From NCBI RefSeq assembly GCF_022846255.1, contig NZ_AP025682.1: DNA of 64,000 nucleotides. The stretch is one strand, 5' to 3'. The position numbers were made by a program, and so were the translations under genes. Source of the DNA: Escherichia coli. Lineage in GTDB: Bacteria; Pseudomonadota; Gammaproteobacteria; Enterobacterales; Enterobacteriaceae. Position 1 is the stretch's first letter. Each line of letters begins with the position of its first letter. Below, piece by piece: positions 56,018 through 64,000 of the stretch. The notes below the pieces were generated by a model. It was not told where the DNA came from. It saw only the letters and a list, made by a program, of their open reading frames with translations, and did not search any database.

Positions 56018-57546
56018 GACGCCTCCTGACGCTGACTATCTCCGAAGGCAACGCGCATAATGGTCTCGACATTAATATCGCGCCCGGTCAGTGCAGAGTG
56101 GGCAATTTCGCCCTGATGCATCACATACACGCGATCTGCCATCAGTTCGATCTCTTCGAGATCAGAGGAGATAAGCAGCACAGCCACATTCTGTGCGGCG
56201 ATGCTGCGCAACAGTTGGTAGATATCATTACGCGCCGAGACATCCACGCCGCGCGTCGGCTCATCGACAATCAATACTTGCGGCGAAGCTTCCAGGCATT
56301 TGGCAATCAGGATTTTTTGCTGGTTGCCACCGGATAATGTCCGTGCAGCTTGTTCCGGTTGGTTAAATTTAATATTCAGCGCCCGACGATATCGTTCCAG
56401 GGTGGCATTATCTTTCGCGGTTTTCGCCCAGAATCCACGAAGGTTATGAGTAAGGGCGCAGACGTTCCAGGCCAGCGAAGCATCGAGATTCAGTCCGGAT
56501 GACTGGCGATCTTCCGGCAGATAAACCAGACCGCGCAGTAAACGTTCTCCGGTGGATAATCTATTGATATCTTTACCATTCAGCATAATGCGTCCGCCAC
56601 GCAAAGTACGCAGACCATAGAGCGTCTCGGCCAGTTCTGTGCGTCCGGCTCCCACCAGTCCAGCCAGGCCCAGAATTTCTCCGGCATTGAGCGTCAGGCT
56701 GACATTCCTGAAACCTTCGCCGGTCAGATTTTCCAGTGTCAGCACCGGCGTTCCGGCGGCATGTTGTGGGCGGTTGCCAGGTAATTCCAGCCATAATTTT
56801 TGGCTGGCAGAGAGCGATTTTTCCCGTAGCGCTGGCGTGATGGCCTGAATAATGTCGTCGGTAGACAGTTCGCTGGTTTTGCCGCTTAAGGCGATGGTTC
56901 CGTCGCGCATCACGCTAATCCGATCGGCAATCTGGCGAATTTCCGGCAGCTTATGCGAGATAAAAACAATACCCACGCCAGTAGCAAGCAGCTCTTGCAA
57001 GCGACTAAACAAGCGTTCGGTTTCCGCAGGGGTAAGCGAGGCGGTAGGTTCATCGAGGATCAGAATCTGCGAGTCGCGCATCAGCCCACGGAGGATTTCC
57101 ACCATTTGGCGATCGGCGACATCCAGCGATCCTGCCAGACTATGCAGATCAAACTGGCAGCCCAGCGCCACCAGCAAGTTATTCATTTTCTGTATGGAGA
57201 GTTGTTTTTTTGCCAGACCAAACAGGATGTTTTCTTTTATCGACAGGCTTGGAAAAAGCAGCGGTTCCTGGGGAACGAGATAAATGCCCAGCTGATGAGC
57301 ATGAACTGGCGTTAATCTGGTGTAGTTGTTGCCCCCAATCTCCAGCGTACCGCTATCAGCAGGGGTAATACCGGCAATAATCTTCATTAACGTCGATTTA
57401 CCGGCACCATTGCCGCCGAGCAGTGCGTGGACCTCCCCCTGATGCAACGTAAAATCGATGCCTTTCAGGACATTAACCCCTGAATACTGTTTATAAACCG
57501 AGCGGGCGCAAAGTAGCGGTAACGCGCGGGTATCACTCGTTTGCAT
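56011..57546 (-). CDS. lsrA: AI-2 ABC transporter ATP-binding protein LsrA
   Basis: 511 aa with two ABC cassettes (Walker [10 protein letters not shown] and GLVGAGRTE). Confidence 0.92.
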
Positions 57547-57710
57547 ATTTCCCCCGTTCAGTTTTGCAGGTGAGTTTTGAACAAATGTATTTCTGCTTTT
57601 AATTTGTTCATAACCTTAGGTGGACATTGCACATATTTCCGACGAATAGATCACAATTTATGCTATTTTGATTTTCACGGTTGCGTTTGTTCATGCTCGT
57701 AGAGTCAAAC

Positions 57711-57726
57711 TGTGGTTGCTATCACA
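57711..57726. promoter_or_regulatory. CRP-site-like sequence in the lsrA/lsrR divergent intergenic region
   Basis: TGTGG-ttgcta-TCACA, near match to TGTGA-N6-TCACA. Confidence 0.45.
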
Positions 57727-57794
57727 GATATAAATGCGCAAGAACTGAACAATTGCATTAAAGATTTAAATATGTTCAAAGTGAAGAATGAATT

Positions 57795-58748
57795 ATGACA
57801 ATCAACGATTCGGTAATTTCAGAACAGGGAATGTGTGAAGAAGAACAGGTCGCGCGGATTGCGTGGTTTTACTACCACGACGGGCTGACCCAGAGTGAGA
57901 TCAGCGATCGTCTCGGCCTGACCCGTTTGAAAGTGTCGCGATTACTGGAGAAAGGGCATCAATCCGGCATTATTCGCGTACAGATTAATTCACGCTTTGA
58001 AGGCTGTCTGGAATATGAAACACAATTACGTCGTCAGTTTTCGCTGCAACATGTCCGGGTGATCCCAGGGCTTGCGGATGCTGATGTCGGCGGGCGACTA
58101 GGGATAGGCGCGGCGCATATGTTGATGAGTTTACTTCAACCACAACAGATGCTGGCGATTGGTTTTGGCGAGGCAACCATGAATACGCTGCAACGCTTAA
58201 GTGGTTTTATTTCGTCACAGCAAATTCGCCTGGTCACGCTCTCCGGTGGAGTCGGTTCTTATATGACGGGTATCGGGCAGCTTAACGCGGCGTGCAGTGT
58301 GAATATTATTCCGGCTCCGTTGCGGGCATCCTCCGCTGACATTGCCCGTACGCTAAAAAATGAAAATTGCGTCAAAGATGTTCTGCTAGCCGCGCAAGCA
58401 GCGGATGTGGCGATTGTCGGCATTGGGGCTGTGAGTCAACAAGACGACGCAACAATCATTCGCTCCGGCTATATCAGCCAGGGCGAACAGTTAATGATTG
58501 GTCGAAAAGGGGCGGTTGGCGACATTTTAGGCTACTTTTTTGATGCAAAAGGTGACGTTGTCACGGATATCAAAATACATAACGAACTGATTGGCTTACC
58601 TTTAAGCGCGCTGAAGACCATACCCGTCCGGGTTGGCGTGGCAGGGGGAGAAAATAAAGCCGAAGCAATTGCCGCTGCAATGAAAGGCGGTTATATCAAC
58701 GCACTGGTTACCGATCAGGACACAGCAGCGGCGATTTTACGTAGTTAA
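57795..58748 (+). CDS. lsrR: lsr operon repressor LsrR (SorC family)
   Basis: 317 aa, N-terminal HTH. Confidence 0.92.
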
Positions 58749-58826
58749 ATTTGCATGACCTTGTTACCGGGAATGATGGAGAACGTATAGAGGAACAGAC
58801 AGAACGCATAAGCCGAGGATAATCTA

Positions 58827-60419
58827 ATGGCTCGACTCTTTACCCCTTCAGAATCAAAGTACTACCTGATGGCGCTGGATGCAGGCACCGGAAGTATTAG
58901 GGCTGTGATATTCGACCTGGAAGGCAATCAAATAGCCGTGGGACAGGCGGAGTGGCGGCACCTGGCAGTACCGGACGTTCCTGGTTCTATGGAATTTGAT
59001 CTCAACAAAAACTGGCAACTGGCGTGTGAGTGTATGCGCCAGGCGCTGCACAACGCCGGCATAGCCCCGGAGTATATCGCTGCCGTTTCGGCATGTTCGA
59101 TGCGCGAAGGCATTGTTTTATATAACAATGAAGGAACACCGATCTGGGCCTGCGCCAATGTGGATGCCAGAGCGGCACGCGAAGTTAGCGAACTTAAAGA
59201 ACTGCACAACAATACCTTTGAAAACGAAGTTTATCGAGCGACCGGGCAAACGCTGGCTTTAAGCGCCATCCCCAGATTACTTTGGCTGGCGCACCATCGT
59301 TCCGATATTTACCGTCAGGCATCAACCATCACCATGATCAGCGACTGGCTGGCCTATATGCTCAGCGGCGAACTTGCGGTGGATCCCTCTAACGCTGGCA
59401 CCACGGGACTTCTTGATCTAACCACCCGTGACTGGAAACCTGCATTGCTGGATATGGCTGGCCTGCGTGCCGATATTCTTTCTCCTGTCAAAGAAACCGG
59501 CACATTGCTGGGTGTGGTAAGTTCACAAGCGGCGGAACTCTGCGGTCTGAAGGCGGGCACTCCGGTGGTCGTTGGAGGAGGTGACGTGCAGCTTGGTTGC
59601 CTGGGGTTAGGCGTTGTACGTCCGGCACAAACCGCGGTTCTTGGCGGCACATTCTGGCAGCAAGTTGTAAACTTAGCCGCGCCGGTGACAGACCCAGAAA
59701 TGAACGTGCGCGTTAATCCCCATGTTATTCCTGGCATGGTACAAGCTGAATCTATAAGCTTTTTTACCGGACTCACCATGCGCTGGTTCCGCGATGCTTT
59801 CTGTGCCGAAGAAAAACTGATTGCCGAACGTTTAGGCATCGACACCTATACGCTGCTGGAAGAGATGGCCAGTCGGGTGCCGCCTGGGTCGTGGGGCGTA
59901 ATGCCGATATTCTCCGACAGAATGCGCTTTAAAACCTGGTATCACGCTGCGCCTTCCTTTATTAACTTGTCCATTGACCCGGATAAATGTAACAAAGCGA
60001 CATTGTTCCGTGCGCTGGAAGAAAATGCGGCGATTGTATCAGCGTGTAACTTACAGCAAATTGCTGATTTCTCGAATATTCATCCCACCTCGCTGGTTTT
60101 TGCTGGCGGAGGTTCAAAAGGGAAATTATGGAGTCAAATTCTCGCTGATGTCTCGGGATTACCCGTCAATATTCCGGTGGTCAAAGAAGCCACTGCATTA
60201 GGATGTGCCATTGCAGCTGGCGTCGGTGCCGGAATTTTTTCATCAATGGCAGAAACCGGAGAACGCCTGGTTCGCTGGGAACGGACGCACACACCAGACC
60301 CGGAAAAGCATGAACTTTATCAGGATTCACGCGATAAGTGGCAGGCAGTTTATCAGGATCAGCTGGGGCTGGTTGATCATGGACTGACGACGTCGTTATG
60401 GAAAGCGCCAGGGTTATAG
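58827..60419 (+). CDS. lsrK: autoinducer-2 kinase LsrK (FGGY family)
   Basis: 530 aa, FGGY carbohydrate kinase family. Confidence 0.92.
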
Positions 60420-60502
60420 TTTCATTGACAGCCACACCATGATGACCGTGGCTGTTAGTTTTTGAGTATTGGTATTCTCATTTCCCTTCTTTTAGAGCTG
60501 GC

Positions 60503-62800
60503 TTGTTAAATGCCAGCTTGCAGATTCATCGTTCCATCACCAGTACTATATTCAAGGGGAAATTGCTATTCACGCTGATCAATGCGCTCAAAGGCGATGG
60601 CTTGATGCGAGTGCAGCTGTCATCCTCCGACAAAATGTTTGGCTTTACCCATGCAGCAGGGACTGAATTCGCCGGTGTTGCCCAACTGAAAGCCAGTACC
60701 TTCGCACTGGAACGCGACAACACCGCTGCGCTTACTTACGCGATGCTGCAGTCTGACAGTGAAAATACCACATTGGTAAAAGTGGGAGAGCAATCCATTG
60801 GTGGACTAGCCATGAATGGCGGTACGCTCACGTTCGATACGGATATACCTGCTGCGACGCTTGCGGAGGGATATATCAGCGTCGATACGCTGGTTGTCGG
60901 CGCGGGTGACTACACCTGGAAAGGCCGTAACTATCAGGTAAACGGGACGGGCGACGTGCTTATCGACGTGCCTAAACCGTGGAATGATCCCATGGCGAAT
61001 AACCCTCTGACGACGCTCAATTTTATGGAACACGACGATAGCCATGTCGGCGTTCAACTGGTGAAGGCGCAAACGGTTATTGGATCGGGTGGTTCATTAA
61101 CGTTACGTGATTTACAGGGCGACGAGGTGGAAGCGGACAAAACGTTACATATTGCGCAAAACGGAACGGTGGTCGCCGAGGGTGATTATGGATTCCGACT
61201 CACGACCGCACCTGGTGATGGTTTGTATGTTAACTATGGGCTGAAAGCGCTGAACATCCATGGTGGGCAAAGCTGACGTTAGCCGAACATGGCGGAGCCT
61301 ATGGCGCAACGGCCGATATGTCGGCAAAAATCGGTGGCGAAGGGGATCTGGCAATCAATACGGTACGACAGGTTTCGCTTTCCAACGGTCAGAACGACTA
61401 TCAGGGGGCAACCTACGTTCAGATGGGGACATTACGTACCGATGCGGATGGCGCGCTGGGCAACACCCGGGAACTGAACATCAGCAACGCGGCCATCGTC
61501 GATCTTAATGGATCGACCCAGACGGTAGAGACATTCACCGGGCAAATGGGTTCGACTGTTTTGTTTAAAGAGGGGTCGCTGACGGTGAATAAAGGTGGGA
61601 TCAGTCAGGGCGAACTGACAGGTGGCGGAAACCTGAATGTTACAGGGGGAACACTGGCTATCGAGGGGCTTAATGCACGCTACAATGCGTTAACCAGCAT
61701 TAGCCCAAATGCGGAAGTCAGCCTCGATAATACGCAGGGGTTAGGCAGAGGAAATATTGCCAATGACGGTCTGTTAACGCTAAAAAATGTGACCGGCGAA
61801 CTGCGTAATAGCATAAGCGGGAAGGGTATCGTGAGCGCAACCGCCAGGACAGACGTAGAGCTGGATGGCGATAATAGCCGCTTTGTGGGGCAATTCAACA
61901 TATACCGGAAACAATGGCCTGATGACGTTCAACGCGACGCTGGGCGGCGATAATTCACCCACGGATAAAATGAACGTGAAAGGCGATACCCAAGGGAACA
62001 CTCGCGTTCGGGTTGATAACATTGGCGGCGTCGGTGCACAAACGGTCAACGGTATTGAACTCATTGAGGTTGGCGGTAATTCTGCAGGTAACTTCGCGCT
62101 GACCACCGGAACTGTCGAAGCTGGGGCTTACGTCTACACGCTGGCTAAAGGGAAGGGGAATGACGAGAAAAACTGGTATCTGACCAGTAAATGGGACGGC
62201 GTAACGCCACCGGATACACCAGATCCCATCAATAATCCTCCTCAGCTGGGCGCTGTATAACTGGTTTGATAACAGCGTCAGTTCCGATAACCGTTCTGCT
62301 GACGACTATGATTCTCGCGGTGTGACGGCCTCTGTTGAGGGTGGGTATACCTTTGACGGGGAACATTTAGTGGCAGCGAAGGGACGCTGAATACCTGGTA
62401 CGTCCAGCCACAGGTGCAAATCACCTGGATGGCTGTGAAAGATTCTGACCATACCCGGAAAGACGGAACACGCATTGAAACGGAAGGTGACGGAAACGTG
62501 CAAACGCGACTTGGGGTGAAAACCTACCTGAACAGTCATCACCAGCGTGACAATGGTAAACAGCGTGAGTTCCAGCCTTACATTGAAGCGAACTGGATCA
62601 ACAACAGCAAAGTCTACGCCGTGAAGATGAATGGTCAAACTGTAAGCCGTGATGGTGCGCGTAATCTCGGTGAAGTACGTACCGGGGTTGAGGCGAAAGT
62701 AAATCACAACCTTAGCCTGTGGGGGAATGTCGGTGTGCAACTAGGTGATAAAGGCTGTAGCGATACTCAGGGCATGCTGGGTGTGAAATATAGCTGGTAA
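60503..62800 (+). pseudogene. yneO: autotransporter adhesin remnant (yneO/ydeK-like), 5'-truncated and multiply frameshifted
   Basis: Four + strand track ORFs in different frames (60503..61276, 61318..61953, 61865..62260, 62414..62800); Gly/Asn-rich passenger-like repeats; last fragment ends ...LGVKYSW typical of autotransporter beta-barrels; no signal peptide at 5' end. Confidence 0.7.
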
Positions 62801-62808
62801 ACCGTATA

Positions 62809-62842
62809 AGCCGCATGTCGAAGATGCATGCGGCTTAATATT
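62809..62842 (+). terminator. stem-loop after the autotransporter remnant
   Basis: 9-bp stem AGCCGCATG/CATGCGGCT followed by TAATATT. Confidence 0.5.
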
Positions 62843-62875
62843 GCCGACTTCAAACGACTTTTAAATCCTCCTTTT

Positions 62876-62921
62876 TATCCGCGATCGCGGATATCACAGT
62901 GTTTATCCCGTAGAGCGGATA
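62876..62921. promoter_or_regulatory. two HipB operator palindromes (TATCC-N8-GGATA) upstream of hipB
   Basis: TATCCgcgatcgcGGATA (62876-62893) and TATCCcgtagagcGGATA (62904-62921), exact matches to the HipB operator consensus. Confidence 0.65.
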
Positions 62922-62942
62922 AATATGCTGTGGACGTATGAC

Positions 62943-63209
62943 ATGATGAGCTTTCAGAAGATCTATAGCCCAACGCAATTAGCGAATGCAATGAAACTGG
63001 TTCGTCAGCAAAATGGCTGGACGCAGAGCGAGCTGGCGAAAAAAATCGGTATTAAGCAGGCGACAATTTCCAATTTCGAAAACAACCCTGACAATACCAC
63101 GCTCACGACATTTTTTAAGATTTTACAGTCGCTTGAACTCTCAATGACGCTATGCGACACGAAAAATGCCTCGCCAGAATCAACAGAACAGCAAGATCTG
63201 GAGTGGTAA
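62943..63209 (+). CDS. hipB: antitoxin HipB (Xre-family HTH)
   Basis: 88 aa from MMSFQKIYSPTQLANAMKLV; track ORF starts 6 codons earlier. Confidence 0.9.
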   Translation: MMSFQKIYSPTQLANAMKLVRQQNGWTQSELAKKIGIKQATISNFENNPDNTTLTTFFKILQSLELSMTLCDTKNASPESTEQQDLEW

Positions 63210-64000
63210 TGCCTAAACTTGTCACTTGGATGAACAACCAGCGGGTAGGCGAGTTAACGAAGTTAGCCAATGGCGCGCACACCTTTAAGTATGCACCGGA
63301 GTGGTTAGCCAGCCGTTATGCCAGACCGTTGTCACTTTCGCTGCCATTGCAGAGGGGGAATATCACCTCTGATGCCGTATTTAACTTCTTCGATAACCTG
63401 TTACCCGATAGCCCGATTGTACGTGATCGGATCGTTAAACGTTATCATGCTAAATCCAGACAACCGTTTGATTTATTGTCAGAAATAGGGCGAGACAGCG
63501 TTGGTGCCGTAACGTTATTACCCGAAAATGAAACCATAACGCGCCCGATAATGGCATGGGAACAGCTCACTGAAGCCAGGCTTGAAGAAGTATTAACGGC
63601 TTATAAAGCAGATATCCCTCTGGGCATGATTAGAGAAGAAAATGACTTTCGCATCTCGGTTGCTGGCGCGCAGGAGAAGACAGCGCTGCTCAGAATAGGC
63701 AATGACTGGTGCATTCCGAAAGGAATAACGCCGACGACGCACATCATTAAATTACCGATTGGCGAAATCAGGCAGCCCAATGCGACGCTCGATCTCAGCC
63801 AAAGCGTTGATAATGAGTATTACTGTCTGCTGCTGGCGAAAGAACTTGGGTTGAATGTGCCGGACGCAGAAATCATTAAAGCGGGAAATGTGCGCGCGTT
63901 AGCGGTCGAACGTTTTGACAGGCGTTGGAATGCTGAGCGAACGGTTTTACTTCGCTTGCCACAGGAGGATATGTGTCAGACATTCGGTTTATATTCATCG
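63209..64000 (+). CDS. hipA: toxin kinase HipA, partial (3' end beyond window)
   Basis: ATG overlaps the hipB stop by 1 nt (TAATG); hand translation MPKLVTWMNNQRVGELTKLANGAHTFKYAPEWL recognised as HipA; open to window end. Confidence 0.9.
   Translation, partial: MPKLVTWMNNQRVGELTKLANGAHTFKYAPEWLASRYARPLSLSLPLQRGNITSDAVFNFFDNLLPDSPIVRDRIVKRYHAKSRQPFDLLSEIGRDSVGAVTLLPENETITRPIMAWEQLTEARLEEVLTAYKADIPLGMIREENDFRISVAGAQEKTALLRIGNDWCIPKGITPTTHIIKLPIGEIRQPNATLDLSQSVDNEYYCLLLAKELGLNVPDAEIIKAGNVRALAVERFDRRWNAERTVLLRLPQEDMCQTFGLYSS

Follow-up and report, generated by a model that had tools for sequence, protein, structure and literature searches.

The window, that is, the whole stretch of Escherichia coli DNA that was analysed (64,000 nucleotides), ends within a hipBA operon on the plus strand. 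The antitoxin and repressor gene hipB occupies 62943-63209 (+) as an intact open reading frame of 88 codons. It is followed at 63209-64000 (+) by the 5' part of hipA, the gene for the Ser/Thr kinase toxin, of which 264 of the 440 codons lie in the window, with no stop before the edge. HipB scored 184.5 bits against the NCBIfam HipB equivalog model NF007271 (cut-off 79) and 55.7 bits against Pfam HTH_3, a helix-turn-helix of the Cro/C1 type. The 264 residues of HipA in the window scored 97.5 bits with PF13657 (Couple_hipA) and 83.8 bits with PF07804 (HipA_C), and they aligned end to end with the solved structures of E. coli HipA (PDB 3DNT/3FBR, E = 9e-174). These matches bear out the sequence-only reading, which had placed a hipBA module at the edge of the window. 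The overlap TAATG that it had described between the two genes was also found: the hipB stop TAA (63207-63209) and the hipA ATG (63209-63211) share the single base 63209 within TAATG (63207-63211). The same one-base overlap is annotated in K-12 and has been described for E. coli (PMC3376134, PMC4150777). The order, with the antitoxin first and the two genes overlapping in one operon, is that of E. coli-type HipBA, a kind of module in which HipA arrests growth and is neutralised by HipB, and the operon is at its usual E. coli site, 3' of lsrK and of a remnant of the ECSE_1600/yneO autotransporter gene. The locus is the known chromosomal type II toxin-antitoxin operon hipBA of E. coli and not a new member or kind.

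HipB differed from that of K-12 at two of its 88 residues (A73T and N85D), and exactly this protein is very common among public E. coli assemblies. Another ATG in the same frame lies 18 nt further 5', at 62925, and opens an alternative HipB of 94 codons. This ATG is created by a T>A variant (AAATTTG to AAATATG; 62925-62927) common to many strains, and gene callers have accordingly annotated tens of thousands of assemblies with a HipB of 94 aa.

The autotransporter gene between lsrK and hipB (60503-62800, ECSE_1600 family, yneO-like) is broken into at least four open reading frames. Intact copies of the gene in other strains encode 1806 aa, and the remnant falls short of them by about 3 kb. Both this remnant and the AAATATG variant accompany what we call the parent-type allele of hipBA, carried by strain 2014C-3075 and by the nearest structural relatives, the genomes L016 (GCA_022391245.1) and L020 (GCA_902849005.1). 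Just 3' of the autotransporter stop (62800), a terminator-like hairpin with 11-nt perfect inverted arms lies at 62807-62837 (+). Its RNA fold had an energy of -18.9 kcal/mol (z = -4.26), and it was present in all compared strains. The hairpin was not called by a simple terminator scan because its tail, UUAAUAUU, is a poor U-tract. An Rfam search of 60000-64000 returned nothing.

The window as a whole is of mosaic ancestry. Among complete genomes, B2-like strains came closest for 1-24000, at 99.1% identity, and for 40000-64000 the best identity was 98.0%. Genomes without any lsr operon had a tam allele identical to that of the window. At about 60.3 kb, the divergence from L016 dropped from 1-4% to almost zero. 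A recombination patchwork appears to make up the lsr-hipBA area. In two genomes with the same Tam protein as the window (L037 and L042), an inovirus-like prophage (Zot, secretin, G2P/Phage_CRI, G5P) was found beside hipBA, and no hipA gene was called beside hipB in L037. This prophage probably integrated at the nearby dif site, which we take to lie just beyond hipA in K-12.

Operators and a 68-bp deletion upstream of hipB

The operator consensus TATCC-N8-GGATA was matched exactly only twice in the 64-kb window, where 0.03 matches are expected by chance, and none of 100 shuffled windows contained two or more. Both sites lie immediately 5' of hipB and have no strand assigned. The first, TATCCGCGATCGCGGATA at 62876-62893, is a perfect consensus site and corresponds to O4, which was base for base the same in K-12 and in all other examined hipBA loci except L028 (one spacer base). 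The second, at 62904-62921, was shown by alignment to K-12, XJ6.1, and L016 to have the O3 sequence TATCCCGTAGAGCGGATA joined to the downstream flank of O1. A gap of 10 bp separates the two operators, and 21 bp lie between the second and the hipB ATG (62943). The two perfect palindromes recognized in the sequence-only reading were thus confirmed, and the figure of four operators that it gave for K-12 was correct according to both the K-12 alignment and the literature (PMC4150777).

That reading had cautioned that further operators might have been missed, and we ran the relaxed scan that it proposed. With up to three mismatches allowed, 62700-63000 yielded nothing beyond the two perfect sites and, where the autotransporter reading frame stops, one chance match with three mismatches; no additional isolated TATCC or GGATA half-sites were found from the autotransporter stop to hipB. 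Two overlooked degenerate operators, for which nothing spoke but the caveat itself, can be dismissed given these scans, the K-12 alignment, and an intergenic region of only 143 bp as against 211 bp in the parent allele.

K-12 MG1655 and strain XJ6.1 each carried four operators, which in the downstream direction are O4 TATCCGCGATCGCGGATA, O3 TATCCCGTAGAGCGGATA, O2 TATCCTCACTAAAGGATA, and O1 TATCCCCTT(A/G)AGCGGATA; their names are fixed by a published O1O2 oligonucleotide (PMC3376134). The four sites of E. coli hipBA, to which HipB binds cooperatively, are spaced by 10, 21, and 10 bp (PMC4150777), whereas the window has two sites, recognized by sequence alone, with the single 10-bp spacing. In the alignment with K-12 and XJ6.1, the window showed a gap of 68 bp from O3 to O1. 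Among the other loci that include the hipB start (K-12 and 39 from many lineages), 40 of 40 had four perfect operators and the hexamer TTGACT. Their operators start at -135/-134, -107/-106, -67, and -39 relative to the hipB ATG; in the deletion lineage only -67 and -39 are occupied. When the region was compared with 5,426 complete E. coli genomes by megablast, the match was always split in two, and the subject exceeded the query by 68-80 bp. Of these genomes, 4,798 had at least 80% of the 166-bp region with the four operators.

Relative to the parent allele, the missing 68 bp are GATGTGTTTCCTGATTGACTTTATCCCCACTAAAGGATAAAACTGATAATATCCCCTTGAGCGGATAA. They contain TTGACT, O2, TAAAAC, GATAAT, and one O3/O1 copy. 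Both breakpoints are within GAGCGGATAA, 10 bp that are directly and exactly repeated in the right halves of O3 and O1, and comparison with the parent allele places the single remaining copy, and thereby the deletion junction, at 62913-62922 (no strand assigned). Together with one flanking base, O3 and O1 match at 17 of 19 positions. Indeed, when the 68 bp (GATGTG...TTGACT...O2...TAAAAC...GAGCGGATAA) were taken out of the L016 allele, whose control region (166 bp) has a 100% identical counterpart in strain 2014C-3075, the window sequence from 61500 to 64000 was obtained save for four SNPs in 2.5 kb. The parent control region is in effect one operator-pair unit repeated in tandem, with copies spaced by 28, 40, and 28 bp, and one 68-bp period of it is gone. 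Because exactly one period was lost, the survivors occupy the places of O2 and O1 in other strains: O4 starts 67 bp and the O3-sequence operator 39 bp upstream of the hipB start codon. That there are two operators, as against four in K-12, is caused by this 68-bp deletion between the O3 and O1 repeats. We infer that the segment was lost by replication slippage or by short-homology recombination between the GAGCGGATAA copies.

We considered whether the gap could be an assembly or sequencing artefact, with four operators in the true genome. The full-length junction was found in none of the 5,426 complete E. coli genomes, in which the best matches were the O1 region with two mismatches, and neither JGI metagenome contigs nor the GTDB species, with one genome each, contained the exact junction pattern. 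The window is also mosaic relative to its nearest relatives. Look-ups with HipB (88 and 94 aa), LsrK, and Tam gave only four-operator relatives or B2-type genomes without any lsr. The lineage was found when a small autotransporter open reading frame with a private SNP (62757) was used as the probe. The identical junction was then present in five separately assembled records: the Logan assemblies DRR322657 (L043; 100.000% identical to 56429-64000 of the window, 7,572 nt), DRR102846 (L045; one base differs), and DRR322658 (L044; two one-base homopolymer contractions), NCBI GCA_005387665.1 (L049), and the ENA metagenome ERZ929318 (L046). Furthermore, a 10-bp repeat is too short to be collapsed in k-mer assembly, and the remainder of the region was base-perfect against the parent allele. 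An artefact is accordingly highly improbable. Since the same junction recurs in separately assembled records, the 68-bp deletion is a genuine allele of a rare lineage.

Two of these records have peculiarities of their own. The contractions in L044 (G5>G4 in lsrR, window position 58644, and A7>A6 in hipB, 63039) would both cause frameshifts. We rejected the hipB frameshift as a sign of silence, as homopolymer contractions in hipB and lsrR are typical of sequencing error. L046 has the deletion and the private upstream SNP but changes to another hipA allele 3' of 63427, with 31 mismatches to the window in 574 nt; this metagenome contig either is chimeric or reflects natural recombination.

HipA of the deletion lineage

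The full hipA is an open reading frame of 440 codons in L043, the record with 100% identity to the window, and residues beyond 264 were read from there. The product (WP_137501530.1 / BDH33487.1, named HipA of E. coli) is also encoded on a 4.94-Mb contig. It differed from K-12 HipA at 14 of 440 residues (104, 107, 110, 112, 119, 262, 286, 343, 344, 382, 385, 424, 431, and 439), six of them among the 264 in the window. Compared with the parent allele, the lineage hipA has P262Y, S286C, and G344E as well as three synonymous changes. P262Y is a lineage-specific tandem CC>TA at 63992-63993 (+) and is the sole coding difference from the parent allele in the window. A guessed full-length HipA, made from the L016 sequence with P262Y, had matched no record because the lineage also has S286C, G344E, and a normal C-terminus; HipA of L016 has 438 aa owing to a 2-nt deletion at the very end of the gene. 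The last 101 nt of the window had a best match of 98% among complete E. coli genomes.

None of the replaced residues is in an invariant or near-invariant column among 71 diverse homologues, and all residues in such columns are kept. The three changes P262Y, S286C, and G344E are all in variable columns. Column 262 contained P in 34 homologues, S in 13, A in 10, and G in 5, with no Y, and in view of this variability P262Y is unsupported as a toxin-inactivating change. The kinase residues K157, K181, D309, H311, N314, and D332 were retained. The lineage is wild type at G22, P86, and D291, which we take to be the known high-persister positions (hipA7 and related alleles). Three of the changes in hipA (6781-8103 of L043) fall within 6 nt (G342 synonymous, A343 synonymous, and G344E). 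Several bases changed together, here and in the tandem CC>TA, suggest either multi-nucleotide mutation or gene conversion in small patches.

Transcription signals and the expected expression of hipBA

Shimada et al. (2014; PMC3946193) listed an RpoD promoter for hipBA, TTGACT-16-TAAAAC, in the spacer between hipB and yneO. We located the promoter by this listing together with a sigma-70 matrix scan. In K-12, L016, and XJ6.1, the top site of the scan was built on the TTGACT -35 element (7.7-9.3 bits). The top-ranked -10 element was AAAACT, one base downstream of TAAAAC, which ranked second or third, and an alternative -10 element, (T/G)ATAAT, adjoins TAAAAC. In other E. coli, the operators form the pairs O4-O3 and O2-O1, and the promoter is wrapped around O2. 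TTGACT, TAAAAC, and (T/G)ATAAT are all inside the deleted 68 bp. The TTGACT-based site is absent from the window, and no sigma-70 promoter of the form TTGACT-16/17-TAAAAC is embedded between O3 and O1 there. A scan for consensus promoters on the plus strand of 62600-63300 called none. The best site left over was a weak promoter-like sequence, TTTATC-16-TATGCT at 62902-62929 (+), which scored 6.2 bits. The window has one site of at least this quality per 248 bp, which is the chance level. Upstream, the hairpin at 62807-62837 is predicted to form and would limit read-through into hipBA.

IHF has been reported to act upstream of the hipBA promoter (PMC7167474). It cannot substitute for core promoter elements that are absent. 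At the place corresponding to 62855-62860 of the window, K-12 (L001, about 1655-1670) and L010 have an insertion of 12-13 bp upstream of O4 (GCGCATCAACGCC in K-12). The K-12 insertion creates a near-consensus IHF site, CATCAACGCCTTA, when compared with WATCAANNNNTTR, which we presume to be the IHF consensus. Because the window and most other strains do not have the 13-bp insertion of K-12, what has been described of IHF input in K-12 may not apply generally.

From these signals, we think it probable that hipBA has been silenced or strongly weakened by a recent regulatory lesion in an otherwise ordinary locus. Recombination or replication slippage between the GAGCGGATAA copies in O3 and O1 would have removed one 68-bp unit, and with it the -35 element, O2, the -10 element, and one operator copy. 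The operon would then have no promoter and would follow a strong hairpin at the end of the upstream pseudogene, so that little or no transcription would be expected. Autoregulation by HipB and HipA would be moot, the surviving operators having nothing to regulate, and the module would be a recently silenced toxin-antitoxin pair that has not yet decayed. Toxin and antitoxin would be lost together because they share one transcript, and this joint loss would be tolerated because deletion of hipBA has no phenotype in K-12 (PMC8725577). In all clean assemblies of the lineage, both open reading frames and both remaining operators were still perfect. This intactness fits recency and fits continued function equally well.

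Indeed, low-level transcription from TTTATC-16-TATGCT or by read-through of the hairpin could occur, as weak promoters can use poor hexamers. It is conceivable, if rather unlikely, that hipBA is still expressed at a low level and autoregulated by way of a weak promoter at the junction or of read-through from the pseudogene. The O4-O3 pair stands exactly where O2 and O1 stand elsewhere (-67 and -39), with the same 10-bp spacing as O2-O1, and could give two-operator repression. The promoter-like site matches at 7 of 12 positions, spans the junction, and is overlapped by the remaining proximal operator. In addition, hipB and hipA are intact, HipA keeps all of its invariant and near-invariant residues, and the hairpin has no good U-tract. 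Against this, the candidate promoter is at the chance level with its 6.2 bits, whereas the native sites reach 7.7-9.3 bits, and a transcript started there would have a leader of only about 6-8 nt before the hipB ATG. As for read-through, the upstream autotransporter gene is a fragmented pseudogene, and its promoter was marked as H-NS associated by Shimada et al. (PMC3946193).

It is more doubtful still that the deletion has rewired hipBA to a minimal two-operator circuit on the weak junction promoter. If this were true, HipB and HipA levels would be lower, repression less cooperative, and expression noisier, and together with P262Y, S286C, and G344E this could alter the frequency of HipA-induced persisters in the lineage.

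Comparison with other hipBA loci and implications

The locus has the chromosomal position, the neighbours, the TAATG overlap, and the O4 and O3 sequences of K-12 hipBA. Unlike K-12, it has neither O2 nor the TTGACT-16-TAAAAC promoter and only one O3/O1 copy, it does not carry the 13-bp insertion upstream of O4, in which it agrees with most strains, and its lineage has its own HipA changes (P262Y, S286C, and G344E). It differs from its parent-type relatives 2014C-3075, L016, and L020 in that these keep four operators and the promoter.

Independent lesions were found at the same locus in O157:H7 and O145 strains. O157:H7 strain 2-6-2 (L033, 1672-1720) has a deletion of its own of about 615 bp, which starts inside O3 (TATCCCGTACAG|TTTG) and takes O2, O1, hipB, and about 85 codons of hipA. 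O145 strain RM8988-C1 (L034, 2130-2552) keeps hipB and has an internally deleted hipA pseudogene. These lesions have produced coding-region pseudogenes, whereas the lineage of the window was hit in the control region only. The hipBA operon of Shewanella oneidensis likewise encodes HipB and HipA and is preceded by several palindromic operators (PMC4150777), and its HipA is homologous to that of the window (E = 1.4e-20). Its four operators, however, have the form GTGTA-N6-TACAC with an even spacing of 34 bp and no cooperativity, and its genes are 3 bp apart and do not overlap (PMC4150777). In a literature search of incomplete coverage, we found no description of a natural operator or promoter deletion of hipBA.

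As the O157:H7 deletion also begins in O3, two independent deletions end in this operator, which suggests that the repeated operators are fragile sites for the decay of hipBA. The hipBA system itself is textbook knowledge, and the value of the finding is practical. In the output of annotation pipelines, this locus passes for an intact hipBA, yet the promoter and the best-studied operator pair, O1O2, are gone, so that gene presence or absence overstates function. Furthermore, the isolates with the deletion are a natural control for the contribution of hipBA to persistence outside K-12.
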